Shown here one piece after another: positions 15,670 through 64,000 of a DNA stretch of 64,000 nucleotides. The stretch covers positions 25,296,001-25,360,000 of the forward strand of contig NC_134478.1 in assembly GCF_964194025.1 (NCBI RefSeq), in the 5' to 3' direction. Below the pieces are notes generated by a model. The model had not been told where the DNA came from. It worked only from the letters and a program-made list of their open reading frames with translations, and ran no database searches. Position numbers and translations under genes: made by a program. Numbering within the stretch: the first letter of the stretch is position 1; each line of letters opens with the position of its first letter. The DNA is from Convolutriloba macropyga (lineage: Eukaryota).

Positions 15670-15686
15670 AAAGGTGATACGACAAA

Positions 15687-22299: not shown

Positions 22300-22304
22300 G
22301 TAGA

Positions 22305-22317: not shown

Positions 22318-22323
22318 TTGATG

Positions 22324-22523
22324 NNNNNNNNNNNNNNNNNNNNNNNNNNNNNNNNNNNNNNNNNNNNNNNNNNNNNNNNNNNNNNNNNNNNNNNNNNNNN
22401 NNNNNNNNNNNNNNNNNNNNNNNNNNNNNNNNNNNNNNNNNNNNNNNNNNNNNNNNNNNNNNNNNNNNNNNNNNNNNNNNNNNNNNNNNNNNNNNNNNNN
22501 NNNNNNNNNNNNNNNNNNNNNNN
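22324..22523. other. Assembly gap (200 N)
   Basis: Run of N. Confidence 1.
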
Positions 22524-33479: not shown

Positions 33480-35740
<2,261 letters not shown>

Positions 35741-41600: not shown

Positions 41601-42759
41601 CTTCACCCTTCGTACCCAATTGCTTTGCAGATTAGAATCAGTGAAACTGCTTCGCAGATCAGAATTAGAATCAGAATTATAATCAGTGAAAGGGGCTTCG
41701 CCCTTGGTTCCCCAACTGCTTCGCAGATTAGAATCAGAATTAGAGCTGAAGATAGAACTAGAGCTAGAACATTTTGAAGCAGTACCCCTTAACTTAGAAG
41801 AAATTTCTTCCACACAATTACCACTTATTGTTTGATTTCCACATGCACACTTACTAACTTTATCTTTATGTTCTATTTTTTAATGAAAAAGCAAAGTGTG
41901 TGGGGTTCCACATCTATAATTACAATCTAAACATTTCATATGCATTATTTCTAAGGAATCAAAACTTTTTATTTATTTATAACTGATCATAAATCTGTAT
42001 ATTTATTTATATTTATAATTATACTTATATTTATATTTATATTTATAATTATATTTATATTTAATTATATTTATAATCATTAATAACTAGCTATAATTTC
42101 AATTAAACTTCTAGAATGATCTTAAGAGAAGGTAAACATACCCAAAATGTTCATACCTAGCATAGTAAGAGTATCATACTTATATCTTTTATCTAAAATC
42201 TTCTCATTACCCAACCCAGTTTTATCTCCAACTAAATTTATAACTTCATCTCTAAATTTTTGATTATTTTTTTATAGATCTTTTAAATTATCTCTACCCT
42301 TTTCATTTAAAGCTTCACTATCTTCATCTACGAAGGGGCTCCGCCCTTGGTTCCCCAAGCAGCTTCCCTGATAAATATACTCTTCTTGCTGATTGGTATT
42401 ATTATACAAAGAAGAAACTCCATGTTGATGATGAAACTTCGTGCATCCGTGAAACGGCTTCGCCGCTGATTCACCATTCTCTTGATATGAAGGTGGTGAC
42501 CCATCCTCGCCCCAAGCATGGTTCAATAATGTATCCGTTCTAATTATCATATGACTTGCATGTGCTGTCACTTGTGCTGTAGTTCTTACTTGTATCAGGT
42601 TTAATACAATTATATATCCAAAATAGTGCTCTCAAACCCCCTGATATACACCCTATATACTTTGCCCAATTAGTAGCAATCTTTTCTTTTGTTAGAACAT
42701 CATTCTGAATTTTAATAACTCTTGAAGTAAGAAGTTTATTAAAGTAGAATATATAGTTA

Positions 42760-43560
42760 TCTTTATTAATAGTATTTCTGTCTGTAGCACTATTCATTAG
42801 TGGTTTAATATAATCTATAATTTTATTTATCTCACTAATCTCTAATTCATTTTTTAAACTAAGAGCTTTAAGGTCTAGGAAACCAACTCTTTAGTCATAT
42901 ATCTTAGTTCTATTTCGATCATAAAAAATAAAAGTTTCCTCTTTCTTATTATAATTAATCATACCATAACGAAGAGCATCATCTGTCCCATCTGTACAAT
43001 TATAATAACTAATATTTAAATCTTGAATTATACCATGGAAGTCAAGCTTACACTCATATGTTGTTTTAAAATTCTTAAATAGATTGGCCCCATTATAAGT
43101 TGTTATACAAATAGTGTCACAATTCATTCTAGCCACAAAATCTATCTGAGCTGGTTTACGACGCATTACAATCATTTGAATATTTTTATTTCTTCCTTCT
43201 GTAAAATAATAAATTATATCCTTATTAAACTCATCACCCATATCATCAAGAACAATTACGCTATTTTGGAATTTGCGTATATTTTTCATTGTGATCATAT
43301 TTATATCACCCATTTCAAATCCAGCATAGGGGGCACCTGTCTCGGGATCAATCCAATCCTTTTCATCTTTACATACTATGATTATATTTTTGTTATCTTG
43401 ATCTTGTTCCTGATGGGTCTCCGACCATCAGTGAACGGACTTCGCCCGTGGCACGTCAAACGGCTTCGCCGATGCATTGCCATCCAAGTATAACTTTAAA
43501 TATTGTCTAACAAAATAAGTTTTTCCCGTACCAGTAGCACCTAAACAATAGTATGTAATA
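42760..43560 (-). pseudogene. A32/FtsK-like packaging ATPase 1
   Basis: Walker A GATGTGKT (43518-43541), Walker B VIVLDD, FTEGRNKNIQMI. Confidence 0.75.
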
Positions 43561-43867
43561 GTGACTTTTCAGATTCGAATCTAACTAAACTTTTATTCAG
43601 AAACCCACCAAAGTTTTATTCTAGTTTTGTATATCTACTTGGCAAGTCATAATACATTATAAAACAAACAAATGCTACTAACACGAGAATAAAAATTAAG
43701 GGACCGTTCTTCATTTTTATATGTTGAATATAGTCTTATAATTAGACTTAGATTTATAATTAGACTTAGACTTATAATCAGGTTTAGACTTATGGGTCTT
43801 CGACCATCCGTGAAACGGCTTCGCCGATGCTTTGCCATAATTAAACATTAATAATTATTATATAAAA

Positions 43868-44362
43868 ATGCTTATCCTAAGTTTTGAAGAATTCAATAAT
43901 GAATTTGGTATTGATAATGAACCAATGAGTAATATCAGAATAAAAGATATAGGTAAAGATATAAGTCTAAACCCAATAGAAATAATAATGAGAGATGAAA
44001 AACCAGAAATGATTTATGAAACCAACTGCAACATTATTGTTAATTTACTTCCAACTGATGCCACTCATTGGGTTCTAGTTATAAGAAGGAGAGCTGGTAA
44101 GGTTTATTACTTTGACAGTTTTGGTGTACAGATTCCACCATTATTCTTAGAAGAATATGTTGATCTGGGCTCTAATGAAAAAATACAAGAAAATAATAAA
44201 TCTTATTGTGGCGCTTATTGTTTATATAAGATCTATCTTATAGATAGACGATTGACAATAGAGGGTGCTTTGGATATTCTAGTTAATCAAGTTAAATGTC
44301 CTGATGGATATAAAAAGTGTCAGTGTTTGGGTTGTAAAGTTGGAGTTGAAGGTAATCAGTGA
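43868..44362 (+). CDS. Adenain-like cysteine protease
   Basis: THWVLV, YYFDSFG, IQENNKSYCGAYCLY (H-D-Q-C). Confidence 0.88.
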   Translation: MLILSFEEFNNEFGIDNEPMSNIRIKDIGKDISLNPIEIIMRDEKPEMIYETNCNIIVNLLPTDATHWVLVIRRRAGKVYYFDSFGVQIPPLFLEEYVDLGSNEKIQENNKSYCGAYCLYKIYLIDRRLTIEGALDILVNQVKCPDGYKKCQCLGCKVGVEGNQ

Positions 44363-45232
44363 ACCTGCAGAGCTTGTTCGCAGATGGTAATGACAATGAC
44401 AATCAGGGAAACTGCTTTGCAGATGACAAACAAGAATCCTCCTTATCAGAAGAAGATGACATAGTATGGTCGAAGGCTCAAGATTCCCCCACCAAACAAA
44501 GAGATAAGCCTTGTTCACAATGTGGATGTGGATGTGGAGGGACCCCTCCCCTTAAAGTATCAAGGCTTGGTGCGCCAGTAAATAGTAAAGGAAACTTATT
44601 TATCAATGTTAATGGAAGTCTACAATCATGGATAACTGATAGAAATATAACAGTCTATGCCCCCTTCCCAGAAAAGCTCAGATGTATAATAGCAGGTCCT
44701 AGTGAGTGTGGTAAGACAGTCTTATTAAAGAATCTATATATACCCGGCATACAATTTGATAGATTATATATCATTGGTCCTACTGGTAATCAACTTGATG
44801 ATTTAGAGTATAAAGATGTCGTGTTTATTAAGGATATAAAAGAATTACCCCACCCCGATAAACTACCGAAAGATATAAAAAAAACTCATGATATTTGATG
44901 ATATTTTAGCTAAGGAACCAACTATTAATGAATACTTTTGTAGAGTTAGAGATGAAAACTGTGATATGATATCTTAAACAAAAAATCTTCTCTGCAGACA
45001 GACAGAATGTTAGAGAGAACTGTAATCTATTTATTTTCTTTGAACAGACGGGCAAAGCCATCACTGCTATATATTATGATCACTTTACTGGATCTCAACT
45101 TAGTTATAATGATTTTAGTAATAGATGTGAAAAGGTGTGGTCCAAGCCTTATAATAACATTGTCATTGATAAATCTAAAAATAGATATGATTGTGGTGAA
45201 CTAAGAATTAATTGGGATTGGAGAGTTCTATA
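44359..45232 (+). pseudogene. A32/FtsK-like packaging ATPase 2 (frameshifted)
   Basis: IIAGPSECGKT, LMIFDDI, RQNVRENCNLFILFEQ across frames. Confidence 0.82.
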
Positions 45233-45393
45233 GTTTAATAATATTTATAATTAGGTATAAGTCTAAGTCTAAGTATAAGTCTAAGTATAAATCTGAGTCT
45301 AAGTCTAGGTCTAATTATAAGTATAAGTCTAAGTATAAGTCCAAGTATAAGTATAAGAATATAACTAAATCAGATGGACCTTTGGTCAGCTAG

Positions 45394-46111
45394 TTACACT
45401 AGATGCAAAGTAAAACTCAATACATCCCCATTAAAGTCTATAGGTCTTCCATGCTCATCTTTAATATGAAATTCAATCTATTCTATTCTATCCTTTGTTA
45501 CATTTTGATATAAGATATTAGTCGGTATAATATTTATTAGATAGCCTGGTGGTTCTGTTAGAGTAAAAGTATATAGTATGTCTGTGCTATTGCCATTATC
45601 TTTAACACCAGATATAAGATTACAATGAATATTAATAGTACTAAAACCCATAATATCAATAATCCTTTGAGATGCATATTTACCTTGATCATATACTTTT
45701 TTCTAAAACCCAGTAATGGGGCTATTGAGTTTTCTACATCAAAGTTAATTGCACCTCTTGTTTTATTTCCATTAAACATTTCATTGTTTTCTTATCGGGT
45801 TCTATTATAACATTACCATTAGTTTCTTCATTTATTAATTGTGCTATTCCAGTTAATTCATATGCACCTGGTGTAATAGCTATAGCCATACCTTCATATA
45901 AGAGTTGATTATTATTTCTATTTACATTAAACACTGAGTTATAAACAGATAATCTAATTAAAACTAATTTTGTTGTATTAAGTATAGTTTAACTAAAGTT
46001 AAACTTTTCTCTTGTCTTTATCATTCTAAAGTTAAGTGTGTGTTCTTCTTTAGTTTTAGTTAAAGCTTCATGTATCTTTTGTAGTTCCCATAAGATTAAA
46101 CTTTCAGTCAT
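45394..46111 (-). pseudogene. Minor capsid (penton-like) protein
   Basis: ITPGAYEL..IN; APLLGF; IHCNLISG..NG..DILYTF..PPGY.I..IEFHIKDEHGRPIDFNG. Confidence 0.7.
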
Positions 46112-46127
46112 TTTTTGACTTATAAAA

Positions 46128-47400
46128 ATGGACTTTGATTTGAATACAAATTCATATCAAATGCAATTTGATATGAATTTAATAAAGATATACACAAAAG
46201 TAAGATTATAAAATATAAACCAAATAAACTAGCAACAATGAATACCATTAATACTAACATTAATATCATTCTCAATAGAGAAGAGAATCATTTAAATGTA
46301 CACGATTCATATCTAGAGATAGCGTTTGTTGTATCAGATAATGCTGGTGGTGTATTTGCTAATAATGCTAATATCAGATAGTTAATTGTGGTTATGATGG
46401 CATTATTTAGTTCAGTTAAGCTTGAAACTAGTGGTGGTAGGACAATTGAATAAATAGATCATTGTCATCCTAATCTATTGATGTATAAGTTATTAACTAG
46501 TACTGGTCATTAATGAGAGTGGTTTTTGTTAGAAATCAATGTAATAGAGATAGTCAACTCAAAGGTGATCATGCTGCTGCAGAAAGAGGTCAAATGTATA
46601 TGATGGTTAAGATGAGAGATCTATTTGGTTTTGTGATTGACTTAGAAAAGATTATATATGGGTTAGGATTTAAACTAATATTAAAACGAAATAATAATGA
46701 TAGAGCTCTATTTAGAGTTGATGCTGATCCCGACCGGGTGGCTAATGATGGTAATATAGATATTGGAGATATATCATGGTGTATACCTAGTATTGTTCCT
46801 ATTAATAATAAAAGAATTATGGTACAGAAAGGATTAAATAAAAAGAATAATATTGATTTTAGTTATTATGAAAGACATTTTATAAGAATGTACCCAATGC
46901 TACTAACTTCTTATTTGATCTTGGTATGGAAAGTGATATGGAAAGATCCCAATATATAATAATTGGTTTTGAAAATAATAATGTTAATGAACAAACTCAT
47001 GATGCAAGTACGTTTGATATAATGAATGCTACTGAATGTTATTGTAAGATTCGTAGCGAGTTTTATCCAGAAGATAGAATGAATATTAATTATGGTACTA
47101 ATAATCATAATGATGCTTTTAAAGAGATTGTTGATTTTAATAAAGATTATAATGGATTACCCCATAATATTAAACCATATATAAATCATATAAAGTTATA
47201 CATTCAAAAGTAGTTATAGAATATATGTATTTGATACTAGATATCAAAATGATCACATAGGTCCACAACCAATACAAACTAATTTCAAATTTAGTGTTGC
47301 AGTTGCAGATGTTATATGTCATGCATTAGTGTTAACTAGAAAGGTTATTAGTGTTAATAGTGATGGTCATAAGATGGCTGATATAGTCTTGAAGTTATAA
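46128..47400 (+). pseudogene. Major capsid protein (double jelly-roll type, inferred)
   Basis: DSYLEI, ALFSSVKL..IE, RDLFGF..YGLGFKLILKRNNNDRALFR, YIIIGF, FYPEDRMNINY, IYVFDTRYQ. Size is about 420 codons. Confidence 0.72.
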
Positions 47401-47789
47401 TATACTTATACCTAATAGTATAGTTATAGTTAATAATAGTATAGTTATATTTTTAGTTATATAATTGTACTTATACATAGTAATACCCATATACTTATAC
47501 TTGTACTTATACATAGTAATACCCATATACTTATACTTATAGCCAGTTAGCTCTAGTCATTATCTTAATCAAATTCTTTCCTATTAGTCTTAACAAAACC
47601 TTTAGCATAAGAAGTGTCTAGTTTCTTTTTATTCTCTAGAGTTAGACCTCTAGCTTCAGGTTTAGTCTTGGGCTTAGGTAATGGCTTAGGCTTAGGCTTG
47701 GGTTTAGTCTTAAGCTTAACAACAAAGGGATTATACTTTTTAACTTCATTATTTTTTATATATAAATCTGAGTACCTTTAATAAGTTTA

Positions 47790-48185
47790 AAACTAATTCT
47801 TATTGTGTTGGTGGTAGGCATTATAGTGATACTAATAATATAAGAGGGGTTATCTCAGCCAAAGGAACTAAGATGTTAAAGGGTAATTGTAATAAGTGTA
47901 AAAGGAATAAATCAATGACTGTCAGTGGTGCAACAATAGAAGCAGAAGGATTGAACGATTTGCTAAAGTGTTGGTAAAGCAACAGTTAACTTTGGAAAGA
48001 AAGTCGCTAATAATCCTGCGAGGGGTTAAGAGATTGCAAGTGAAATAGGAAGTGCGGCTGCAAGTAGAAACCCTAAAACAGCTCTAGCAGCCAGACCTGA
48101 TTCAATTAAATTTGCAACTACTGGTGAAGGTATAAGAGTAGTACAGAAAGGTAGAGGGTTATATTTAGGTACAAAGAAGAGATAG
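47790..48185 (+). pseudogene. Small Cys-containing / amphipathic core-like virion protein
   Basis: YCVGGRHYS..GNCNKCKRNKS; EAEGL..VGKATVNFGKKVANNP; C-terminal GRGLYL. Confidence 0.5.
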
Positions 48186-48428
48186 TTTAACTATATTAGA
48201 GTTTAAATAATAACTGACTATCAGGAAGTGCTTCGCAGATGACTATGGGTATGACTTTAGCTATGACTATAAGTGTAAGTCCATGACTATGACTATGACT
48301 AGGACTATAACTATAAGTGGAAGTCTATGACTATGACTAGGACTATGGCTATATCTACATCTAAGGGTAAATATAAATACTAATATTATTATTACTAAAT
48401 AAACTATTATAACTAAGCACTATTAACT

Positions 48429-48998
48429 TTAGTTTAAAAGAACACTCAATTTATTTTTCTTATTCTTCTTATATTCCTCATATACCTTAACTAATTCATT
48501 ATATTCGTCGTTACCTATTTCATTATCATTCATTAATTTAGTATATAGTTTATTAAACTTGTCACTAAACTGTTTACTTAAAATATACATTTGTGAATAC
48601 TTTATAATTTTATTTCTTATTTTAGTATTAATTGTTTTTGATAATGAACCACAAACAGTTGCTGTAGCAAAAACTGTTGGTATAGAATAAGGTAATCCTG
48701 TACCTGTTAATGCAACTGATGTTGATGTTGCAGTTGTTGCTATAGATAATACTATTTCTGTTATCTCAGCTACGTTAATATAATTCTTATATCTACTTAA
48801 CTTCTTATTATAATTATTAGTTTCAGTTTCATAATAATTTCTAAAATCTTTCATAATTTTAATGTTGTTATTAAATTTATTTTTAGCTTGAATCTTTTCA
48901 TTTACCAATTTTTCTGATAGAGAAGATAGACCCGGATATGATAATCCCTCACTCGGTGCTGTTGGTTGACTCATTTTCAGTAGTAAAATAACTCTCAA
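48429..48998 (-). CDS. Polinton membrane-associated protein with hydrophobic hairpin (possibly the 'gasderminX' class)
   Basis: Coiled coil, IVLSIATTATSTSVALTGTGLPYSIPTVFATATVCG, then DNEIGNDEYNELVKVYEEY. The ORF is intact. Confidence 0.5.
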   Translation of the reverse strand: MRVILLLKMSQPTAPSEGLSYPGLSSLSEKLVNEKIQAKNKFNNNIKIMKDFRNYYETETNNYNKKLSRYKNYINVAEITEIVLSIATTATSTSVALTGTGLPYSIPTVFATATVCGSLSKTINTKIRNKIIKYSQMYILSKQFSDKFNKLYTKLMNDNEIGNDEYNELVKVYEEYKKNKKNKLSVLLN

Positions 48999-49189
48999 TA
49001 TATTTCATTATATCTTCTTGTTTAAAATCATAATGCATCTCTAGTCTTGATTGTTCTTTGTTGTCTACTAGCTTACTTTCTAATAATACAGCTATTATAT
49101 ATATTATAACCTCATCATTAATATTTCTTATATCTACATCATTGATATATGGTTTTCTCTTAAACCCCTCCATCTATTAACACATGCAT

Positions 49190-49650
49190 CACCCAATTGA
49201 ATATTAGTAATTGACTGATTAAACTTATTGTTATCAAACTCCACTTTTAATTCATTTTATTTAGAAATGGTTTCAGCGGAGACTTTGCTGCCAAAATGAA
49301 CAATATTAGTTTCAATTTCAGTTATCTTATTGGCGAGTGTGGATATATTAGATGAGTTAAGAGAAACTAGTTCAACTGTATCACCATCAATCCATACAGT
49401 ATCTCCATTGGTTGCAGATGATGGCAAACCAATAATGTTTGCATTTAGTTGGCCAATTGTAACTTCATCAAATTTACCTTTTCTTAATTCAGTTATGTTT
49501 TTAATTAAAATATCTATTTTATTATTAGATTATAATAGGTTATCATCACAATACTCTTTATTAACAACATCTTTTTGATCTATGGGAGGGTGTACATTTG
49601 TAATTTTATAAGTATCGTTCATGTCAATATTATCCTTATCTTCTAAGGAA
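49190..49650 (-). pseudogene. Fibre-like protein relic
   Basis: NIDMNDTYKITNVHPPIDQKDVVNKEYCD motif, typical of viral fibre repeats. Confidence 0.45.
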
Positions 49651-49689
49651 TGAAACAAGAGCCTTACTTAGTGTTAAGTTGTTCATTGA

Positions 49690-50330
49690 TGTTGATTGAT
49701 GTTTAGCCTGATTGAATCTATTTCTTGTCATCTTTGTATTTGTTTACAATAAGAAATATACCTAATGATTCCAAAACCTGATAATCATATTCAAAATCAA
49801 ACTCGGATTTTAATGGTTCCTCTTCATAGTATTTACCTTCTACGATCTCACCATTAATATCTTCTATTCTGTATGTTGGTATCTACTATTCTTAATTATG
49901 TGTAATAATGTTCCATTAAATCTCTCTATAAATACAGCCTTTAAATCACTGTATGTAGAATACAGTTCTGTCTCATATTCTTTAAGATCTAAATGTTTTA
50001 TTGTAAAACTCACTACCTCTATCTACCCATAACTTTTCTGGTTTTCTAGGTTCAGAGCCACCTTCTGGGTGTTCACTTAATACTATTTTAAAACCATTAG
50101 TTATAGATAAACCAGATTTATTCTTTGAAGGAATAGCCCATGCATATTTTGTGAATATATCTATAACTGTTAATATAAACTTATAATTATTGTTGTATTT
50201 ACTTAGAGATGACTTATCAATTAAATCAGCTGACCATATATCATCTTTATATAATGGTATTATTCTTTGTCTTTTAAACTTTGTTATTTGAGGACTAAAT
50301 ACTTCTTTAGCTAGAGTTGTTGTTTAGTTT
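49690..50330 (-). pseudogene. Polinton-type retroviral-like integrase (partly deleted)
   Basis: IWSADLID, YKFILTVIDIFTKYAWAIP, LWVDRGSEFYN, PTYRIEDINGEIVEGKYYEEE. Confidence 0.88.
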
Positions 50331-50459
50331 TAATTGTGCTTTGTTGTTTCATTATGGATGTAGTTATAGGCTTACTCATCTGCGAAGCAGTTTCCCTGAT
50401 GGACGTGGTTGTAGGCTTACTCATGGACGCAGTCATAGTTTTGCTCATTTACCATAATT

Positions 50460-51416
50460 AAAAACAAAATTGTCTAGTTGTTCTTGATTGATAATATTCA
50501 TAGATAATAGTTGTTAGATATATATTTAACATTTCATCATAAAATCCATCATGACCAGCTTTTGTTTCTAGTATAAGTAATTCTAGTCTTTCTACTAAAA
50601 TATTCGGGTCTATTTCGCTAAGACCACTAGCTTTCACTTCTTCATCACTCTCGTAAACAGTTTCTTCCTCTTCTTCTACTACAGCCCCTTACTCATAATC
50701 ACTAGTATCACGTTGATATTTTTCGTCTTCACTGGAGGTTGGTATTGATATAACCTGAGAAGTGGGTTCACCGATACTAGCAATTATTCTTCTTATAAGT
50801 TTTGATCTATTACTTTTAGTATCTCCTCTTTGTTTATAACCAATATCCTTTAGAAATTGTTTTATTTTGATTTCATCGCCTTTCGGTTACATCTTTACTA
50901 GTAATAAACACAGCAAAGCCCTTAGAAAAATCATAGACTTTACATTTCAATTTTATACTATCTGGTATTAGAGATACATCTATATCAATTATTATAAATT
51001 TGTTTGAACTCGCATCAACTGATATTAATTGGAGTTGTTTAATTGTTTGTTTACCCATTTCTAACAAAATATCAATCATATCATTGTCTACAGTAAATGT
51101 TTTTCCTCTATCATCTTTTAATTTTACAGGTATCGGGTGTGGATGTTATGACAGCAGCTCGTTCATCAAGAAAACTGTTTTGTTGTTGGTGCCATAGACT
51201 CTTTAAAGCATAAGTATTACTGTCTAATGCGGTTAAAGTTTTGTTTTGAAGAGTTTGCATTGATTCAGCGTTTGTATTTAAAGTTTTAGTTAAAGGATCA
51301 AATAAATCTTCTATATCGCCATAATATTCTTGTTGTCTTAGTTTATCTTCTAATCTATTTCTTCTGTTTAGTGTTTCTAGTTTGTTTAATTCTATAAGTT
51401 TATCTAGCTTAGTCAT
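50460..51416 (-). pseudogene. Polinton hypothetical protein (fragmented)
   Basis: ORFs 51111-51416 and 50873-51079 plus downstream DPNILVERLELL. Function unknown. Confidence 0.45.
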
Positions 51417-51446
51417 TTTTCTATTTGTTAAGATAAAATTTAAGTT

Positions 51447-51731
51447 TTATGGTTTAACTTCAAAATTATATTTCTTTGCTTGTTCTAAGAATCTTTCTTT
51501 AGTATGACGAAATCTATATCTTCTAAGATAAACACATTCCCTACAAGTGAAATGCTTAAATCTATAGTTAGATATATGTTGATTTACGTTGCATAAACTA
51601 CATACTAAATATTGATCTGGGTCACTAAAATGAATATGCATATGATTATGTTTTCCTTTATATGTTATAGTTTCATTACATACGAAACATATGTATGGTT
51701 TACTTTGACACTCATCACAACTCCAACACCA
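51447..51731 (-). pseudogene. Zinc-finger protein, 5' end cut by LTR
   Basis: WSCDEC..YICFVC-x12-HMHIH..CSLC..CREC in one frame, running up to the LTR boundary. Confidence 0.65.
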
Positions 51732-52153
51732 AGCTAAGACGTGTGCTGAGGTAGGGTTACCTAGGGAGGTTACTCTAACTCTGTCTTATGGAGTCTCAAG
51801 AATATAGTATATCTTAAGGCTTACCTGACTAACTAAAGTTCTATTCCTCTAGTCTGTTACTCTTCTATCTGAGCTTCAGCAGACAGTGCACCGGCCGCAA
51901 TGCTAAAGTCTAGCGTATATCTCAATACAAAACAAGAGCGGAGTAGAGAGAGAGAAATATACTTTATTATTATATCAGGTCTGACTGGTACCGACTAAAG
52001 GGTAGAGTTGTCTTGTTGTCTCTGGGAATAACAAATAAACATTTAAGGGAAAGGTATTTCCATAATTTCAACCAATCAGGGTTGAGTATTTCAGTATTTA
52101 TTTATTAAATAAAATAAGTTTATAAATCCTTTTGTTGGAAGTCAACACTGACT
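51732..52153 (-). repeat. Putative 3' LTR with AG...CT termini
   Basis: Minus strand PPT GGAAAGATGG, then AGTCAG...AATAAA...GTCTTAGCT. Abrupt junction with the Polinton ORF. Confidence 0.65.
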
Positions 52154-53865
52154 CCATCTTTCCGGGTTTTAGAGTTTTTGTTTTTTTTGAAAGTCTTCTT
52201 TACTGTATATCAAAATTAATTTCTCTTCATTCTCTCTGAAAGGTTTTTCTTCTTTTTAGGCTGAAGGTGTTGCCTTGTAGTCGTGGTTTTCAGATAATAG
52301 ATCCCTGGATACAGGTTGCCCACATAGCAAAGATGAACATCAACAACCACAAAAGTATCTATTCCACCACCACACTTCCAGTGGGTGAAGATCCTTCTGT
52401 GTCGCTCCAGTGTTGATGGATGTGGTGCTCCTGTTGTCCAGTGACTTACCTGACTTACCTGATTTGTATGTGTTAGCTGTTAAAGTGTTTATTATTTTTC
52501 TCTATGTAAATGTTCTTTGTTATTACGTAGTATCCCTTCCGGTGGGAAAAAGAAAAAGAATGTATTCTATTCCGTTCATATTTAGAAATCGTTCGATTTC
52601 AATGGCGTAGATTTACTGGTTAACTCCTGTGTTTTAATGTTTTTTGTTATGGAATTCCATGGAGAAATTGAGGGTAGTAGACTTTTTGTGGCTTTCTTGG
52701 CCATGTTGGATTTTGTAATTGAGATGAACATGTATTACTTCTTGCATCTGTTCGAGATCAAGAGTCATTCTGATGTCTGTCTCTTTACAATGGTTTTGTT
52801 ATACTTCTACAACGTCAAATTATATGACTGCGCTTTTCGTATCTGTATATTTTGTTATAATGCCTAAAAGGTGCTTAGTATTTTAAAGATTGTAATGGGT
52901 AGACCCAATTTCACAATTGTTTGATTTCCATTAACGGTACTTTAAATGATGTAAAATGTTGCCTGTCCGCGCGCTTATATCCAATAACCGAATTTTCCTT
53001 TTTGAGGAAAAAATACTTAGTAATTTGTTACAAATAAGATGTTAGTTGTTACGAATGGGTTACATGTGTCTATATGTGTTAACATACATATGTGTCTATA
53101 TGTGTTTACATACATATGGATTATTTTGTTTAAGGTACATATTTGTTTTGTTCAGAATTGTTACGTTGCATATTTCGAGTGTTAAGTTTGGATTGTGAAA
53201 TTTTCGAATTTCAAAATATTTGAGAAATTCTTTCATTCTGTTTGGTACAAGTGTAATACTAAGTGCTATGTATTTTGTTATGTGTTGTTAAAGAATCATT
53301 TTTGTACAATGAATTAAAGTTTGCATGTCTAAATGTACATATTTCCCTAAAGTATGTGTTTTGTTTGTAAATTAAATGATCATGTCTTAACTCGTTATGA
53401 GTAATATGTATATGTAAAGTGTTTTGAAAATTTGATATGTCCGGCTTATACATTGTGTTATTCTTTGTATGTATTAGTGTTACTCATAAAACTATTGTGT
53501 TCCTTTTCATTGAGTTTTCCATTCTATTTACAAAATTGCATATATCTAACTATGGAAAGGCTTTGCATATTTACATGTATACATATGACTAATTTCGGGG
53601 TAAAGTAGAAAAGTATTTTTTGGAAATTATCATATTTTATTTCGCTTTCAGTGTTATACCAAAGGGTATAACTAGTCTTATAAATGGGGGATATTAAAAG
53701 TGAAAGGTTATCTAAAAAGATTAAAGAATAAACAAATATGCACTGAGTCATCCATGGTTGGATGTATTGTTACTAAATACATTATTGTTACTAAGTACAT
53801 TCATTACATTGATGTGTTACGACATAGAAGAAAGTTGTTACATATATATTTGTTATAGCTCCTTG

Positions 53866-55527
53866 TTATAACTTTTCAGTTTGTTTCGGATGATTCGTTC
53901 GAGAATTATATTGTTCATATTCTTTGACGAAGTGATCGTCGTTTGCCAAATAGAATGCGATTAGATTTGTTAGTTCGTCCAGCGAGACTTCCGTTATAGA
54001 AGCTTTAACCGATTTTCGTATTTGTTTCTCTAAGTCTGTAGTTTTACGTTCGTTATTGAATTGGATACGATTTATGACAGCTCTATTTGTTACGCTGCCT
54101 TCAAGATGGTACGTATGGTACTCTTCGCAAGGTTCGAGTGCTTCAATAGGTACTATCAGTGGCCGTTCGGGAAATTCGTTTGGTTGAAATATATAATGGT
54201 TCTTTACGGGATCGAAGTTTCGGAGTGTTCCTACAGTGTATTCCCATTTCAACTTATATCCGTAATTCAGGAAGTATGGTGACGTAAGTTGGTCGTTAAT
54301 ATGAATATAACTTTTTGTTGTGTTTTTATTTTTGTCTCGTAAAAATGTGTAGTAAATGAGGTTATGAACAAGTTTAGTCTCGTGAACTCTGTAGTTATTG
54401 TTCTGTACATCTTTAGCCGTTGGATGTAAAAAGTTAAAACTAAGCTGGAAAATTTGGTGGTCAAAAACGCTGTAGGCAGAAAGATCTTGGGATGCCTTTG
54501 CAACGAGAAGGTCAAATGTGCATACGGTTGGCAGTTTGAACTCATAATCATAGTCGTACAGAAATCGTTCTGTAAGACTATAGAATTGTTTAAGTACTGG
54601 GTAGCATGTTTGATGTAGTTTATCTCTTCCCATGTTCTTGGTACTGCGTTTGACAGTATTTGTATTTTCGGAGGGTAGTGGGGGAAAATACTCCGATATG
54701 CGGTCCTTTAAGTTATGTAATGGAGCCATTATAAAACAATAATCGCGGGAGTCGAATGGTATATTGGACCAATTTCTGTAACTAAGTAGGGGGTTATAGT
54801 TACTGCTGTGAGGGTTTGTTAATAATCTAGGATCGTTATCCTGGAACCAAATGGTTTCCATCACTGTGGCTGTTGGAGATTGTTCGTTCGTTGACTGATG
54901 AAAGAATGATTTATGATTATTACTTCGTGGTGTTATCGCATAAGGAAATCTCAAATTATGTGGTCGTATAAAAGATTTATTAGATGTACATTGTTGATTG
55001 TTATATATTGTTCGTTCATATACACGATCTGTAGGAGGGGGTGGTCGCACTGGTGGAGGATAGTTAGGAAGTGGTGGCGATTGAAACTCTGTATTCGGTT
55101 GGTATACCGTTTGTATGTTTTTATTACCATTGTTACTAGGTCTAGTATGTTGATAACTATGTACGTGTGTACTAGTTCCTTGTTCATTCGGATTGTTCGG
55201 TGTTCTATTCGAAAACGTTTCCTGATTGTTATTTTTACTTGTTAATCGCTTATGAGTTACCTTATCCTTGATCATTTGTGCAATTTCTTTTGGCGTTGGT
55301 TGCAGTGAGGTCTGTGTCTGTTGATCGTTGGTGTCTCCATCGATCTCAACGCGCATGGTTGTTATACGATTGTCAGTTTGTGTACTACATGTAGAGGCGT
55401 TATCGCGAACTGTTCCTGGTGAGGAACGTCCAGATCCAGAGCTGAGTTCGCCCTCCTCAACGTCGTAGCTGAGGGGCGAATCTGCTCTGTATGCAGATTC
55501 GTACTCGAAGTCCATCTTATGTGCCAT
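53866..55527 (-). CDS. Orphan 553-aa protein (disordered N-terminus, globular C-terminus)
   Basis: Uninterrupted ATG-initiated ORF between env and the LTR. Confidence 0.75.
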   Translation of the reverse strand: MAHKMDFEYESAYRADSPLSYDVEEGELSSGSGRSSPGTVRDNASTCSTQTDNRITTMRVEIDGDTNDQQTQTSLQPTPKEIAQMIKDKVTHKRLTSKNNNQETFSNRTPNNPNEQGTSTHVHSYQHTRPSNNGNKNIQTVYQPNTEFQSPPLPNYPPPVRPPPPTDRVYERTIYNNQQCTSNKSFIRPHNLRFPYAITPRSNNHKSFFHQSTNEQSPTATVMETIWFQDNDPRLLTNPHSSNYNPLLSYRNWSNIPFDSRDYCFIMAPLHNLKDRISEYFPPLPSENTNTVKRSTKNMGRDKLHQTCYPVLKQFYSLTERFLYDYDYEFKLPTVCTFDLLVAKASQDLSAYSVFDHQIFQLSFNFLHPTAKDVQNNNYRVHETKLVHNLIYYTFLRDKNKNTTKSYIHINDQLTSPYFLNYGYKLKWEYTVGTLRNFDPVKNHYIFQPNEFPERPLIVPIEALEPCEEYHTYHLEGSVTNRAVINRIQFNNERKTTDLEKQIRKSVKASITEVSLDELTNLIAFYLANDDHFVKEYEQYNSRTNHPKQTEKL

Positions 55528-56209
55528 TATTAATGGTTAGCTAAAATTGCAATTAATATGTTACTCATTTACATTTGGTATTACTGAAGAGTGTTACTAT
55601 ACGATAGTACAAATTGTTACTGATTTACAATGTTATAGGTGTTTTATTGTTACGAATTTGTTTGTTATCTAATATCGTTACTATTTAATATCGTTACTAT
55701 TGTTAACAATTCACTGTTATTGTTATATTTGTCGTTGGACATACTCGGTAAGTGTAAAGTTTCGTACAAAATTGGATAGTATTAAAATGTGTTAGCTAAT
55801 AGTGTGTTAGTTGTTCTTAGCAAGATTCACGGTTACACTTCATATGTATTTGCTGAATGAGTGTCGAAATATGTGACTTCATTCGTGTGTGGTTGATCGT
55901 CATCGTTCAATATGTCTAAACTATGGCTGCGGTTATTCATTTTATTTGCTGCTAGTTTCAATTGGGTGAAATCAATTGGTGGTGGATTTTGTATTTCTAT
56001 AAGCTTCACTGATGGGATGAGATTATTTTGAGTTTTTATTTGTGATGGTTGTGGTATTTCATACGGTGTTGTCTTATTGATTCCTAATTGTGGTTCATAT
56101 GATGTTCCGTGAAATGTAGAAGTTTGTTGTATATTGGGTGCACTTGGGGTTGGTGACACGTGGGGGGGGGGGGTGAATTGTGTGTTGTACTTACTGGTAT
56201 GTTATTTCC

Positions 56210-58797
56210 TCAACATTGATACGCTGGTGGAGGGGTAATGAGTTGTGGAGGTAATTTAGTCATTTTGTTTTCAGTTATTGTTTCAAGGGGCTCGATTTTT
56301 AATGGTTCGGGTTGTTTGTATTTCCGTTCTGGTAGTGGTGGTTTTTGTTTCTTAGGTGGCGATTCTAGTGTTCTCAATTCTAGTCCTTGATCTGTTCTAC
56401 GAATGGTTGTGTTATAATGTTTGTAGTTTGTGTCAATATATGTTTGTTCTGGTGGGTTGTTTTCATTACGTGTTAAATGAGTAACGTCGGATGAATGACG
56501 GCGGAAGGTGTGTTTCCTATTTTTATTGTGTTTATTGTGTTTAGTATAGTGTGAGTAGTTGTTATCACTATCCTGGCTATCATGACTAGTGTCATCTTCT
56601 TGTATCTGTGCAACTAGCTGTGTTAAGGTTTGTGAGAATATACCAAATATTCCTGTTAATAGTATTTTAGTAATACTTGCTTTTTTACCAATCGCTTTAT
56701 GGATTGCGAATGCGTTGTAAAATTTAATTACTAGGTTAGTTGTAAATAATATCATACTGATCATTGCGTATATAATTGCCATCTTTTCGAGAATATACCA
56801 TGGCCAACCAAATATTGATAATATTTGGTCTTTGAGCCATTCTCCATCAAAAATTTCTTTCCAGTTTACGCTTGGTTGATCTATTTGGAAGTTATATCCA
56901 TTTATGTTAAGATCTTTTAACCATTTTAAGGATTGTTCATAATTTTTGTATGTTTGTAAAAGTCCAAGTTGTTCGAGTTCTAATAATTTTTGTGCATTTG
57001 CTGATGTAGCTTCTTGTAGTGGTTTTTCACGATCTCTCATATATTCGTGGAGTAGATCTCTTTTACGTTCTTGTATTAGTTGTTCTTTACTATAAATGCC
57101 ACTTTCTATTAAACTTGCTTTACTAAACATGTTATCTAAAACTATTTCCTCGGGCGATATGGTGTTCAATATCGTTTCTACTTTTACTGGGTAGGGTGTT
57201 ACTCTATATCGTGCTGTTCCTTCAGTGTCTATTGAGATGAGTTGATCAAAGTTACTGTGTGAACAAGGTACTGTTTTTGCCCATAAGTATGTCTGTCTTG
57301 TTAGCTGGTGTACATATTGTACTCTGTTCTTGTATAGAATAGGAATTTTATCGTAACATTCGCGTGTTTGTGGTACATAAAGAGGTGATGATTTCTTCGC
57401 ACATTTATACATTTTCATGACGTTTACGCCTTCTTGTTTCACAAAAATGGATCTGTCTCCAGTAAGAATGTATCCTAAGAGTGGAGTGTTCTTTTGTACT
57501 TGAGTCAATGTTAATTGTCTGAGGTTTCGAGTTTGTTCGCAAATTTGTGAATAGAATTCTATTGCTTGTAAACTAATTCGAGAGTAAATGTTACTCATAT
57601 ATAGGTCCATTTTCATATTAAGGTGAGTTTCTTCGTTTACAAAACCATAATAGTATTGATGGTTTTCTTTGTCTTCGTATCGTGTACGTTCCGATATTAT
57701 TTGTTCTGGTTTTATTTTAAAAAACTTTTCATCGTCAAATTTGTCTTTTTTCTTTGTTACTTTTTGTCCTGTGTGCATGTCAAATCCATATTCATATATT
57801 ATGTATATATCGTCGTATTCTGTTTTGTGTAGTGGTTGTGGTGAACCACATTCACGTTCGACTAGTGGGTATACTTCGAATCGTGTTGCTATTGAGTCTG
57901 TTTGATTTAATTTTATTTTCTTTGTGATGTCTGGTTGTTGGACTGTGGTCCATTCTGCATTTGTTTCTATCCAATATCTATCTTGATATTTTCCATATAT
58001 GCGTCAAATCGTATTAGTTCGAATAGTTGACAGTGTGTCTGTGGTTCCCACACAATTGTTGCTTTTGTTAGTGGTGTGGGTAAACATTCTCCCTTGCGGA
58101 GATCGCATGGTAATTTTGTTCCCATGTATGATATTTCTTCGGTATCTAAATTTAATATTAGTGAGACTTCTCGTATTTCGAGTGTCCAATCTAAGATGTC
58201 TATTCTGTTCTGTTTACGAGGTCCTTTCATACAGTTGGACTGTGCGTTTTTAATTGCGCTAGGTATCCAAAGTGGGTTTGTGTAGTCGTATACAATTCGT
58301 CCGTATGGTGGTACTAGTGGAATGTTCATATCGAACTGTATTCTGCCTTGCAGATCTTCAATCTTTTTCTGTAATGGTGGATTTGCAATAAAGTTGAATG
58401 ATATATTGTATCTTGTAGGTTTATATTGTGTGTTCTTTAGTAAGTTTATTCTAGCGAGTTCGTTACGAAATTTATTTAAAATGCTATCTGTTAGTCTTTC
58501 TGTGTAGAAATTCCAGTTTCTTGTCCATTGGTCTATAGCTGTTTCCCACATTGCTTCATAATCTGTATCGTTTATATTTGTTATATTGTCGATATTAATA
58601 GAATGTTTATATTTATCAATGTGTTTAAACTTGTTTGTGAAGGTGTTTGTTCCATTTCGTGTTCTGTTTTTCTGTTTAAGTTGTTCAATGTGTATATTCA
58701 TTCGTTCGTTAATTAGGTCTTTTATTCTGTGTTTTGCGTTGTCCTGAAGTCTTTGTTCATGTTGAAGTTTTGTTTCTATTTTCATACATATATACAA
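56210..58797 (-). pseudogene. env: Env glycoprotein, class III (gB/chuvirus-like), one frameshift near 57990
   Basis: LPCDLRKGEC..TIVWEPQTHC; ECGSPQPLHKTEY; ICEQTR..EGVNVMKMYKC..CYDKIPI..LTRQ..VPC; TM segment MAIIYAMISMILFTTNLVI; long Pro/Tyr-rich tail. Confidence 0.75.
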
Positions 58798-59985
58798 TAT
58801 TAATAATAATAATATGCATATAATTGCTACAGTTGAAGCGACATGTGTATGTCAATCCTGTATGTGGATTATAGAATGTGGCGAATCCAAGTGTTTGTTT
58901 TGTATATCTGTCAAATTTATATACGAAGTCTATACAAATGAAGGGTGCTGGTATTGTGGTTGTTACAATTGAAGGTGTTGTTGCATGAAATGGATGGTTA
59001 AATATAGTGTTATATTTGATTGTAGTGTTAAATTTCAATTCGAGAGATGGTGTTGCTAGAACTTCTAGTGCTGAATTGCGTTGTCGTGCTGTGAGATTGA
59101 GTGTGTTAGTTAGTCTATTTCTTGCCCAAATTGTAAGTGTATCTCCAAGATTTGTAGGTCCGTATAAAGGAGGAGGTGGGTTCCAAGTTTTATGGTCTAA
59201 TGGGAATAAATAGGTATGTTCATTAGTTCTGCTCTTGGTTGGGGGGTTACGATTGAGTATGGGGGTTGATCTAGTTCTTCTGGGATGGCTGGATGGTAAT
59301 CTAATTTCGGGTATGAATGATGCTGGAGATAGCACTGTGTTTCTAGGTGGTTGTAGGGAGTTCGGGATGTCAACTCTGGGTATGCTTATAGATGTGTTGG
59401 ATGATGTTTGGTTTGTTCGTAATGGTGTTGTGCTTGTACTAGCTGATTGGGGGGATGTTGCTGACCAATGTGAACTGTTGGGTGATTGCAATGGTTGTAC
59501 ACGGAAATGTTCTTGTACAAAGTTAAAATCTTGTCTTTGTTGAAACGTTGGGGGTAGGAAAGGGTTTGCTCGTAATTCAGAAGGTGTTGGTGTATGATCT
59601 GTGTTTACACTTGAATGTTCGCTTGGTGAGCTTATACTAAAGTTGTGTAATGTGGGTGTGCCTGTTCTACTTGGTGGTTCTGAATTTATTGTTTCTATTG
59701 GTCTAATGATATTAGATTCTATGTCTGTTGAACCGTAAGAAACTAGTGTAGATTCTTGTGTAGGGAAGGATAGAGATGATCTACGTCTTGCTCTAAGAAG
59801 TTCTCGTCTATCCGGCCGTTCTCGTCGTACTGTGTAGGGATTTTCAGTATCTATACTTACAGTATCTTCATTTTCTGGTGAGGTTGGTATATTTGTTAGA
59901 TCTGTAACTTCGTTATGGTGTGGTCTTTCGGAGTTATTGTTACTGTTATTATTACTAGACGACGCAATTTTTGCTGTTTTATGCG
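58757..59985 (-). pseudogene. Ser/Thr/Pro-rich accessory ORF
   Basis: The frame stays open from ~59985 through ORF 58757-59491; its 5' part is disrupted. Confidence 0.55.
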
Positions 59986-60810
59986 TTTATGCGCCGGTCT
60001 CAGGTCCGTGTTGTGGTATGTGTATATATGGTGGTGCTAATATTAATACTGGTATAAATTCTTGTTCTGGTGTATGTGTTTGTGCTCCTAGGTTTGATAT
60101 CCAAATTTCTCTATTTGCAATATGTAACTGTAGTTGGTAAATAATAACAGTACCGTATAACGGTGAGTTTTCGGGAAATCCTATTTGTAGGTAGAATCTT
60201 TGTGAATGTAATGTGTAATAGATAGATTCTTCTATATCTGGAAGTGGATCAATTTTTATGGGTTAAGAAAATATTCTGCTAAACTCAAACACATTCGTAT
60301 GAAAAAGTATATTATTAGGGCTATTTTGATGAATTTAAATATTTCGAGTTCAATAATATCAATATTTGATTTACAAATGTGAAATATGTCTGAGTGGAAG
60401 TCCTGCATAAGGTGGTGTGAGTTAGGTGGTGTGATATTTTTGTGTGTGATGTTGTGTATAATTTATTGAACTGGTGGGCTAGCATATATAACTCTACGGT
60501 TACGTATAAATTCGGTAATGGTTACCACTGCTAGATATGTTGAAACAACTATTATACACGGTATTAAGAAGATTGTTAAGAAAAATAGTACTTTAGATAA
60601 TAATATATATATTGCAACTAGTGCCTCTGTGAAATCAATGGTTGAAACTTATATTAGTTCGTTCACTATTTGTTCACTGTGTAAATCAGATACAATGCTA
60701 CACTGAATAGTGACAGTTATTTACTATTGTAACTGACACTAAACGGTGCCGCACTATCAAATTTCTGTTACGTTTATTTGTATAATATTATAACAATGAG
60801 TGGTATCATG

Positions 60811-61263
60811 TTATTTCTTTGTTCTGTCATCAGTGAGGAATATAGCTTCTTTCTTGCAAACTGCGATAAAAACTGTTTTTAGTTGATTTAAATCAACACA
60901 CTTTGTTTGTGTTATCTGTTGTTTTAATGTTTCGAATTCAGTTACTGTTTCAGAACAAGGTAACGTATACTTAAGTATATCAAAATGGTGTTCTCCCCAA
61001 AAGAGTTTTATTTCTTCTTTTGTTTTTGTTACACCTTCAAAGATGAAGAGGTAGTTTTTTGGTGAAACTTTGCAGTTTGTTAGTACAACGTAATCGTCGT
61101 CAAAATGTAGATGACTACCAGTTGGGTATTCAATATCTGTAAACTCGTTTGTTTGTATTGCAATTTTGATTACAAGTTGGTTTTTGTTAAGAGAATTTAG
61201 AAATTCTGATACTGACAACATAGGTGGGGTTTCATTACAATGATAGTTGTAATGATGTATCAA
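60811..61263 (-). CDS. Hypothetical accessory ORF (150 aa)
   Basis: Protein-like composition, on the sense strand of the element. Start codon uncertain. Confidence 0.5.
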   Translation of the reverse strand: MIHHYNYHCNETPPMLSVSEFLNSLNKNQLVIKIAIQTNEFTDIEYPTGSHLHFDDDYVVLTNCKVSPKNYLFIFEGVTKTKEEIKLFWGEHHFDILKYTLPCSETVTEFETLKQQITQTKCVDLNQLKTVFIAVCKKEAIFLTDDRTKK

Positions 61264-63693
61264 TCTTTCTGATATAAAATTAAGGTAGTTCAGTTTACCT
61301 GTGATTGTAGAACTGTGTTGTGAATGGTTGATAAAAATGTGAAAGATGTTGATATTCTTTCACTGGGAATAGTTATTGAAGTTTTGGTTTATAGAGAAAT
61401 GATTGAAGAAGGGTTTATAGATGATTGAGAAAATTTTTGAAGAATTTATAAAAAGGAATCTGTGAGAATATTTTCAAAGATTTTTACTGAAACTGTGATT
61501 GAAATTACAACTGGGTTGAATTATATGAGAATTTTTTAGAGTTTTCAGCTTAGCTGATTTTTAGAGAATTTTTCAATTTTCGGAGAGAAGTTGTTTGTGC
61601 AAGACAAAATTGGAATTGTGATTCTAACTTTCTTGTTTCTTGTTCTCTACAATGTTTGTGACATTTGCATATCTTCCGTTTTTCGTTTTTGGTTCTTGAG
61701 TTGCCAATTACTGGGTCTTGTTAGCTTTTGGATAGGTCTTTTTCGATTTTTGAGTACTTTCTTAGATTCTTTTAGCTTTGTTGTTACCATTCTTTCTTCT
61801 TATAATTATTTGATGTTTATGATTATGTTGGTTGGTAATTAGTATCTTTGGTTACGATATTGGTAAGTTTAAGGGTCTCTTTAATGATTTGTTGGTGCCA
61901 TCAAGTTGGTGCCATTTATTTGCCATTTTGTTATTTGTTAAATTGTTACTTCTTTCCTAGCAATTAGCTTTCAAGTTGATGATTAGTGATGGTGCCATTA
62001 TAGTCGGTGCCATCTAGTTGGTGCCATCTAGTTGGTGCCAACTTCTTGGTCTTCTAATGTGCTTTTATGTTAGTGAGATGTCAATTTCGTAAGATAGTCT
62101 AATTGGATGGTGCAAGTTGGGGATGGTATGACGTTGGGGATGGTATGACGTTAGGTTTTGGTAGTGATTAGTACTGAAGTGTCTACTTCAGTATTTTCTT
62201 TGATCTGTGTCAGATCTATTTCGTAATTACCATTTTGTAATGGTTGTAAATGTTAATTGGGTTGACATTTTCTAATTTGTTACTGGTTGAGTCTACATGG
62301 GTATGTTTCAAGTCTCTTATGTCCGTAATGAACATATCACTTTGTGCCTTTTTTCTTCTGTTAATGATCTCTCTACATATTTGTAGTAATCGATGTATTT
62401 CTTTAATGGTGATACTAATGATGTTGGCATTTTACAAATGCTACTAATTACGTTTGTTATAATAACGTCCGTATTGTTAACGTCCGTTTTTGTTAATGAC
62501 GTAGTTTAGTTTATGACGTACAGTCTTGTTTGAATGTCATATCTATTTAGCCGAAGGTCGTCTGACCGAATGATATTCAAAGTTGAACTAAATTGTTTTA
62601 ATTCAGTTCAAATCTGAACTAAATGGTGTTGTGTAATGTCTGAATCTGTGTTTTAGATGAGGCGTTGTTTCATCGTGGATTGTTACTGTCTGGAACGTTT
62701 ATATGTGTATTTGTTACTACGGATTTATTGTTACACTGAGATGAATTCAACAGATTACACGGTGATGAATTCAACATCATGGTTATGCTTCCAGATTGTG
62801 TTGTCATTACTTCACATTAATTTTTACTTTGATGAGGAAAGAGGAAGTTACTCCTTTTCTTATATTTTGTTTGTTATTATCAGTAATGAGTGCGGGAGAT
62901 GTTATCCTTTGTATTTTGTTTCAACTCCTTATTTTAATATTTATGTTTCTTTGTATTTCGTATTTTACCTGTTTTAATATTAGTGTTTTGTGTTAACCTG
63001 TTATGTGCGTTTTATATATATTCCATTTTTATATTGTGTATTTACTATTCTGATTTATCAATTTCTACAAAATATCTATTCCATTCCGCGAGTTTATCAA
63101 TCGTGGATTTTTCATGCTTTGTTATTTGAACGTATTTGTTATTTGAATTTTGAATATTTTGATTTTTTGTTTATTGTTTTACTTCAATTTAACTACAATA
63201 ACGTCTATTCCAGTTCTAAACCTGTGAACATCAATACCTTTTTGTTTTTTGTTTTTGTTGTTATTTGCTTGAATTGTTTATATGAAAATTTACCTTTTTG
63301 TTAAACTTAATGTGAGAGGTTCAGGGGCTAGTATTAAAATCAGTTTGTTTTATACGATTTGTTATTTGGATTATTTGTTTTATTTATTTTGTGTTACTAT
63401 TGTTGGTGTATTCACGATGGATGAGAAAATGGAATTGCTGTTGATGGAATTGCTGTGGTTGGATTGCTGTGACGGAATTGCTGTTGATGAGATGGAGGAA
63501 GATTTGTGACAATTTTGAGAAGAGTTGTGTTGAAGATTTGAAGGAAGAAGTGAAGAGAATTGATGATGAAGGAGAAGTTTGTAGTGGAAGTTTGTATGTG
63601 AAGAAGAGTGAAGGTTGTGAAGAAGAGTGAAGGTTTTTAGTCGTCATGTGTCATTTATTTTATATTGATGTTTGTTTTTAATTCCTTTTGATG

Positions 63694-63698
<5 letters not shown>

Positions 63699-63724
<26 letters not shown>
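63699..63724. repeat. (TA)n microsatellite
   Basis: Directly visible. Confidence 0.9.
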
Positions 63725-64000
63725 TTGATGTTTTATTATTTTTTGTTCCAATTTTAATAGAAATGTTCTTTTGTTAGTTAAAAATGTTTGTTTGTTAATA
63801 GAAATGTTCGTTTGTTAACGTAAATACATTTCGTTTTGTTTATTCGGGGGAACATATACGGGAAAATACACACGGGTTAGGGTTAGGATGTGTGTTACGT
63901 AGAAATACTGGATATATTATTTGTAGGAATACTGGAATACTTGAAATCTAGATCTATATTTGAAATGTTTGTTTCATTAGTGAATTAATAGGGTTAGGTG

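Follow-up and report, generated by a model that had tools for sequence, protein, structure and literature searches.

The stretch analysed here, hereafter the window (64,000 nt of the Convolutriloba macropyga genome, contig NC_134478.1, positions 25,296,001 to 25,360,000), ends within what appears to be a Ty3/gypsy-type long terminal repeat (LTR) retrotransposon, which lies on the reverse strand and continues into the adjoining 10 kb (locus L031). The whole element measures 20,770 nt and carries between its LTRs a gag-pol frame, a spacer, an envelope gene (env) and seven further open reading frames (ORFs), six of which precede env while one, ORF5, follows it (Table 1). Its strand is skewed towards A and C (A 41%, C 21%, G 12.5%), as an initial annotation of the window had recognised. 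The element is young and recently copied; its 5' and 3' LTRs show 0 mismatches over 422 nt and one gap, their ends are TG...TA, unlike TG...CA, and 4-bp target duplications were found in 5 of 5 LTR pairs for which both ends were located, the window copy included. A primer tRNA look-up for the primer-binding-site-like stretch gave no match, and an Rfam scan returned a chance match only.

Table 1. Features of the element in order along its own strand. Positions are those of the window unless locus L031 is named.
Feature	Position	Strand	Description
5' LTR	L031 8079-8504 (426 nt)	-	TG...TA ends; two splice-donor-like sites in U5
Primer-binding-site-like stretch	about L031 8059-8076	-	
gag-pol	L031 301-7956	-	single unbroken frame, 2,551 aa from Met
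Spacer, about 3 kb	61300..64000 plus 300 nt past the edge	-	no conserved ORFs
ORF-A	60811..61299	-	136 aa from Met (61221); predicted folded domain without known match
11-codon ORF	60774..60809	-	hydrophobic; starts one base past the ORF-A stop
Stem-loop	60692..60757	-	sequence-conserved; just after the 11-codon ORF
TM1	60463..60639	-	membrane protein of about 58 aa, no Met; likely ATT start
TM2	60256..60408	-	50 aa, one hydrophobic segment; ATG in weak context
s91	59987..60253	-	88 aa, no Met; likely ATT start; no family match
STP	58757..59968	-	about 380 aa, Ser/Thr/Pro-rich, no Met; likely ATT start
env	55833..58844	-	gB/chuvirus-type class III fusion glycoprotein (PF24664); broken at four places here
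Splice-acceptor-like site	55541..55548	-	T-run then AG; just before the ORF5 start
ORF5	53866..55527	-	553 aa; disordered N-terminal half, conserved C-terminal domain without family match
3' LTR	51735..52156 (422 nt)	-	the 4-bp target-site duplication comes after it; insertion in a Polinton-like element

Gag-pol and spacer

The initial annotation had described the element as one with gag and pol nearly erased or absent, a headline that is refuted because an unbroken gag-pol frame ends 301 nt past position 64000. Inspection of the next window, which the annotation had itself proposed, turned up an ordinary gag-pol just beyond the edge, and its fallback, an unusually gene-rich element with pol outside the window, is supported, with more genes than it had listed. 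The Pfam matches Retrotrans_gag, reverse transcriptase (RT), RNase H as well as integrase follow in gypsy order in a single frame, with domains at positions 567, about 1090, 1527, 1713 and 2109-2275; a weak Pfam match to a protease falls at a catalytic-type motif, and a CCHC-like knuckle is also present. Among solved structures, the RT is nearest to Ty3 (E 4e-34; next group 3e-21), a placement by score without a tree with reference clades, and retroviral RTs scored far lower. No Pao peptidase family was among the Pfam matches listed, and judged by these RT scores and by the class III-type family that the env matches, neither of the two marks of Retroviridae, an RT of the retroviral clade and a class I env, was found.

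The absence of an RT from the part of the element inside the window was noted correctly before. A putative integrase GPY-like relic at 62217-62249 was rejected: the peptide exists, its 33-codon frame had 0 protein-level matches in 30 diverged loci, and the true integrase end sits in the next 10 kb. The spacer contains nucleotide-conserved blocks near 61534-61710, 62201-62297 and 63064-63390. The first is non-coding and 76-80% conserved in closer lineages, with scarcely any ATG between it and ORF-A, and is a candidate splice acceptor or internal promoter.

Envelope gene

A 597-codon frame of env matched the viral fusion glycoprotein family PF24664 (E 7e-9, above the cut-off), as did 7 of 7 scanned distant env homologs, and judged by this profile the env is of the gB/chuvirus type. 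The initial annotation had the class right, while the single frameshift it reported did not hold. Four breaks are present: the frame shifts near 58.83, 58.0 and 56.17 kb, and at 58.47 kb a stretch of about 385 nt is missing that 28 of 28 other close copies carry. In unbroken copies env is about 1,130 aa long, with an N-terminal hydrophobic stretch, a furin-type site and a single transmembrane segment; five cysteines are invariant in env alignment A2. The tail of 290 residues contains PPxY and PSAP in all 5 of the unbroken copies looked at, which I take to be budding signals; going by what is known of the family, they may recruit the budding machinery so that particles pass between cells.

Accessory ORFs: conservation and selection

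Beyond gag-pol and env, seven ORFs lie in a fixed order and are under purifying selection between lineages, the comparison being made among diverged lineages within the same genome. All lineages show the order ORF-A, 11-codon ORF, TM1, TM2, s91, STP, env, ORF5, and the farthest keeps every accessory ORF except the 11-codon one, at identities from about 25% (ORF-A) to 55% (STP). In that lineage (L113, L121, L124) an extra conserved-looking frame of at least 50 codons, not seen in the window's lineage, lies upstream of ORF-A. The end of STP overlaps the env start in other copies and runs on in the window copy because of a frameshift.

Three of these frames had been described before and were confirmed, namely the intact 553-aa ORF (ORF5), an S/T/P-rich frame of ~400 codons (STP; 409 codons, 59986-58757, 36% S/T/P) and an ORF of ~150 aa (ORF-A; a 182-codon frame, 61359-60811, 136 aa of which follow its Met). 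The 3' LTR had been overlooked, and so had four small ORFs, all conserved, that lie between 60809 and 59987. The long frames exceed chance, since the longest frame in 200 block shuffles reached 196 codons.

Ratios of nonsynonymous to synonymous divergence (dN/dS) per ORF, a check proposed in the initial annotation, point to purifying selection on every ORF. Between closer lineages they were 0.08-0.10 for env, 0.08-0.09 for gag-pol, 0.07-0.12 for STP, 0.09-0.14 for TM1, 0.16-0.34 for s91, and 0.15-0.21 for both ORF-A and the 11-codon ORF, while for TM2 and ORF5 the proportion of nonsynonymous differences (pN 0.05-0.22) lay far below a mostly saturated synonymous one (pS). Against the farthest lineage, values other than that of TM1 rose to 0.21-0.33. 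Among 28 close copies, the frames were unbroken in 24 (ORF-A), 28 (11-codon ORF), 27 (TM1), 25 (TM2), 28 (s91), 27 (STP), 14 (env) and 21 (ORF5).

Pfam gave no match for any of the six accessory ORFs scanned, the 11-codon ORF being too short to scan, and a PDB sequence search gave none for ORF-A, s91 or ORF5; protein homologs of ORF5 and STP among the matches listed were ENA records only. Protein conservation of ORF-A begins 26 codons upstream of its Met, at 61299, a point that also has a conserved donor/acceptor-like site and a conserved CTG codon. Its predicted model has a pLDDT of 73. ORF-A was considered as an eIF1/SUI1 mimic on account of a profile match to aIF1 (E 0.046), and this was not supported: the model had no PDB or viral Foldseek match, the best VIA Z was 4.6 and no SUI1 chain was among the matches listed. 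The small membrane proteins TM1 and TM2 may assist assembly or entry.

Copy family and the origin of Gag-Pol

An env probe yielded 739 candidates, of which the best 40 were scored, all at least 98% identical, and an RT probe yielded 1,239 first-look candidates; copies that most resemble the window's are over-represented in this sample. Across 40 scored matches each, identity was 98% for env, 99% for RT and 97-99% for ORF5, with the spacers less alike. Gag-pol lies upstream in 38 of the 40 env matches, 27 of them by an RT match ~10 kb upstream and 1 + 10 by gag-pol in fetched flanking sequence; the remaining two are an internal tandem repeat of the env-ORF5 block and one copy lacking gag-pol. 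Among diverged copies with both flanking pieces, pol was present in 11 of 12, the exception lacking both pol and the 5' part of env. One copy comparison left out 4 of 37 copies, and the comparison of conserved sites in LTR and spacer left out 5 of 12.

The copy lacking gag-pol (L110, G000:C2:39436000-39445000) has a deletion from the middle of the 5' LTR to just before TM2, by which gag-pol, spacer and ORF-A were lost and both LTR ends kept. It was considered as a retrocopy of a spliced RNA and this was rejected: its junction, seen once, is a run of A that lacks splice ends. An apparent strand conflict in a C4 copy dissolved into an ordinary full-length copy. Tandem repeats of the env-ORF5 block occur within elements L058 (G000:C12:48868148-48878147) and L107, and one copy (L034-L036) is inserted in a long T/C-rich simple-repeat array.

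These copies bear on the proposal, made in the initial annotation, of a bipartite system in which a non-autonomous element keeps env and accessory genes and borrows Gag-Pol in trans. Such a system could account for the one env copy in 40 without gag-pol and the one diverged copy in 12 without pol, and RT candidates outnumber env candidates, so that relatives with pol and without env may exist; the window's own copy, though, has an unbroken gag-pol, nearly all close env copies have gag-pol upstream and nearly all diverged ones have pol, and the pol-less junction was met once among the 40 scored matches and is no splice junction. No amplified pol-less family was seen among the best 40 of 739 env candidates (1 of 40, with a unique junction), and the bipartite reading is very improbable. 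No more credence is due to the idea that the extra ORFs are captured cargo carried passively, with no role for the element: it would fit the lack of any family, fold or sequence match for the ORFs scanned, but it sits badly with purifying selection and with an order that stays fixed between lineages nearly saturated at synonymous sites. An autonomous element whose accessory ORFs are kept by selection remains the preferred reading.

Expression of the accessory block

TM1, s91 and STP have no Met, and the conservation of each starts at an ATT codon (s91 in 22 of 25 rows, STP in 22 of 23, TM1 in 18 of 24 with a further 4 showing ATA), mostly with A at -3 and G at +4; of the 33 ATT codons in env, only 5-10 are retained per lineage comparison. 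The 2.7-kb stretch from 58845 to 61550 is poor in ATG (10 observed, 31.5 expected; elsewhere 150 and 122). The stem-loop after the 11-codon ORF has a z of -4.3, with compensatory change in 1 of 21 pairs. The acceptor-like site before ORF5 is present in 18 of 18 copies listed, from all lineages, a hexamer type that occurs 6 times in 11.8 kb, and the two LTR donor-like sites are present in 6 and 7 of 7 other-lineage LTRs. In four unlabelled runs in contig form, which cover the stretch throughout, no junction at these putative splice sites came up among the matches listed, an outcome that weighs neither for nor against them.

The simplest model would have two spliced RNAs, a polycistron covering ORF-A to env and another for ORF5. 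The polycistron would be sub-genomic, its splice probably starting at the 5' LTR donor, and weak or non-AUG starts (ATT, possibly CTG) together with the scarcity of ATG would let scanning ribosomes reach each ORF; the 11-codon ORF and stem-loop may act by re-initiation or shunting. I favour, with moderate confidence, expression of ORF-A to env from one such RNA by leaky scanning, possibly aided by re-initiation or shunting, while ORF5 is quite probably made from a spliced mRNA of its own.

The ORFs without Met could instead each have their own mRNA, with an AUG supplied by cis- or trans-splicing and no non-AUG initiation. The donor-like sites of the LTR and of position 61299 would suit this, as would the acceptor-like site before ORF5, and weak splice sites are hard to spot in an A-rich strand, but across lineages no AG is conserved before TM1, s91 or STP, which argues against splicing that supplies the AUG, conservation begins at the ATT codon itself, and the conservation of every ORF extends to its own stop codon; this alternative is unlikely, although it keeps some weight. 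More improbable still is a fused product, in which read-through of the intervening stop joins s91 to STP or frameshifting joins TM2, s91 and STP. In the window's lineage a single stop separates s91 from STP, both being in the same frame, and the TM2 stop overlaps the s91 start, which would allow for it; s91 read-through into STP was rejected, however, on finding two stops in one lineage and an out-of-frame arrangement in another, and the spacing also differs in the farthest lineage. Leaky scanning along a spliced polycistron is retained as the working model.

ORF5 and a putative ARS2-binding motif

Residues 24-28 of ORF5, within its disordered region, form the motif [ED][ED]GE[IL], which is kept in 112 of 120 homologs and in 8 of 9 far-lineage copies listed, with E24, G26 and E27 invariant in 11 of 11; the farthest lineage keeps it though the surrounding half is only 26-35% identical. 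According to the part of the source drawn on here, this motif binds the zinc-finger leg of ARS2 in Red1, ZFC3H1 and FLASH, Leu being tolerated for Ile (10.1101/2022.01.19.476877). ORF5 shares it, likewise in a disordered region, with the ARS2-binding proteins Red1, ZFC3H1, FLASH and NCBP3, its own binding being a prediction, and the host genome has an ARS2 gene with a matching zinc finger. Among the 120 of 553 profile matches listed only the element's own family was found, with nothing in the PDB, and the predicted model (pLDDT 32) was unusable.

Because the motif is conserved, binds ARS2 elsewhere and meets an ARS2 in this host, a role like that of Rev or CERV is proposed: ORF5 would bind host ARS2 through the acidic motif and steer intron-containing element RNA to export or away from decay. 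I regard the odds of this as about even. In the one literature search aimed at it, no report of a mobile-element mimic of an ARS2-binding motif was listed. Between L091 and L097, the synonymous divergence of ORF5 is 0.73, compared with 0.15-0.20 for env, STP and TM2, the values of env and STP being 0.18-0.20; exchange between lineages or a faster rate could produce the excess, and the trees are broadly congruent.

Genomic surroundings

The insertion lies in a Polinton/Maverick-like element (window 41000-51734 and L031 8505-10000, L032, L033) with a double jelly-roll capsid at 46501-46956 (E 3e-7), an A32-like ATPase at 42894-43427 and an integrase at 49985-50323. Zinc-finger ORFs lie on the far side of the 5' LTR, a small Cys-rich ORF is split by the gypsy insertion, and a second related Polinton-like copy is present in L033. 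Elsewhere in the window, a beta-like tubulin coding stretch of 317 codons (33911-34861, minus strand) stands amid transposon debris, and positions 1000-9000 hold 1.9-kb and 1.0-kb units arrayed in tandem, in which RT-like and PHD-finger frames have decayed. Remains of other gypsy and BEL/Pao elements lie at 11000-17000, 18300-21600, 22200-23200 and 24300-28200, and the one at 11-17 kb has unmatched frames past its integrase (15085-15666 and 16293-16985).

Discussion

The locus likely (probability about 0.8) holds an LTR element of the Ty3/gypsy group that is 20.8 kb long, autonomous and recently amplified and that has its own gag-pol, an env of the gB/chuvirus type and seven selected accessory ORFs, probably organised much like a complex retrovirus. 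Several points weigh against this reading in part or whole. Many copies are broken, gag-pol being intact in 2 of 11 and env in half of the 28 close ones, and scoring the best 40 of 739 env candidates leaves room for a diverged pol-less subfamily. The env was assigned from sequence and not from a fold, and its profile matched no solved gB in the PDB. Rows within a lineage are not independent, so that counts of rows come down to about eight lineages; dN/dS was computed by NG86, which ignores base bias, near saturation, and TM1 reached 0.69 against the farthest lineage (52 codons). The proposed starts and splices are read from conservation, plain scanning would be hampered by the stem-loop and the ATG-started ORFs (ORF-A, 11-codon ORF, TM2), the env ATG is also in weak context, and three ATGs persist in s91 and STP. 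The ARS2-type motif of ORF5 is short, at five residues.

The replication part of the element is ordinary, and the sequence suggests that its novelty lies in the seven selected accessory ORFs, the signs of non-AUG polycistronic translation and the putative mimicry of a host motif. A broader and rather doubtful proposal is that one invertebrate lineage of 'complex' gypsy viruses converged on the organisation of complex retroviruses: a single RNA would serve a six-gene accessory block and env by way of successive AUU starts and a shunt-like element, and the last gene would act as a Rev-like ARS2-motif mimic that rescues unspliced RNA from nuclear decay. Env-bearing gypsy elements have been presented as simple, with three genes; the present family has regulatory complexity on the scale of a retrovirus in a non-vertebrate setting, and its small genes without Met escape ordinary gene callers. 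If the proposals above are true, it would be a natural example of non-AUG initiation occurring in series in a retroelement of an animal, and would supply a candidate for a mobile element that mimics the ARS2-binding motif. They would also bear on the question of how intron-containing RNA of LTR elements is exported, to which CERV is one solution described among retrotransposons.

Comparison with known systems

The comparisons below draw on parts of the publications cited. A gB/chuvirus-type env on gypsy elements across animals has already been published (Chary and Hayashi, eLife 2026, PMC13524379), and the HSV/gB-type ancient errantiviruses described there share with the present element the gag-pol-env order, the env type, multiple copies at >98% identity, LTRs and a primer site. 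The filters of that survey (a gap of at most 1 kb or env within 3-5 kb, a region of at most 10 kb, an LTR distance of at most 14 kb) would skip an element of 21 kb such as this one, whose pol-env gap of 5.5 kb and LTR-LTR distance of about 20 kb both exceed them; its main text, the element table aside, has 0 matches for 'accessory' and 0 for 'splic'. No publication on the family or on AUU-started ORFs in a gypsy element was found in a search that lay outside subscription journals and Repbase. Troyka (PMC12440569) has CG...CG ends and a 3-bp target duplication, as against TG...TA and 4 bp here.

Large size (>20 kb) and accessory coding are shared with Burro of planarians and Ogre of plants, and with Burro also env homology (PMC6431247, which also covers foamy-like fish endogenous retroviruses among large elements with accessory coding). 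Burro encodes one polyprotein of roughly 4,900 aa with env between gag and pol, and in Ogre, which has 1-2 extra ORFs, the size comes from long LTRs, whereas the element described here has LTRs of 0.42 kb and seven separate ORFs flanking a free-standing env. The Drosophila MDG1-group sORF1/sORF2 (PMC11952523) and the ORF3s of bdelloids (PMC5408684), compared by description, are likewise small membrane or captured extra ORFs; elements with sORF2 have the small protein in place of env, and the present one has both.

The likeness in the proposed expression is to rice tungro bacilliform virus and badnaviruses (Caulimoviridae, PMC5902531), which share an AUU-started ORF, AUG-poor ORFs and a short ORF before a stem-loop. 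In rice tungro bacilliform virus, the AUU start and AUG-free ORFs serve leaky scanning and the short ORF before the stem serves shunting; it is a plant pararetrovirus with neither LTRs nor env, and a mechanism shown there is proposed here by analogy. CERV of the C. elegans element Cer1 (PMC10309623) is, as proposed for ORF5, a novel protein of an LTR retrotransposon tied to a spliced mRNA and to the nuclear fate of RNA, a likeness by description in which ORF5 differs by sitting after env and by having its putative role suggested by a motif.

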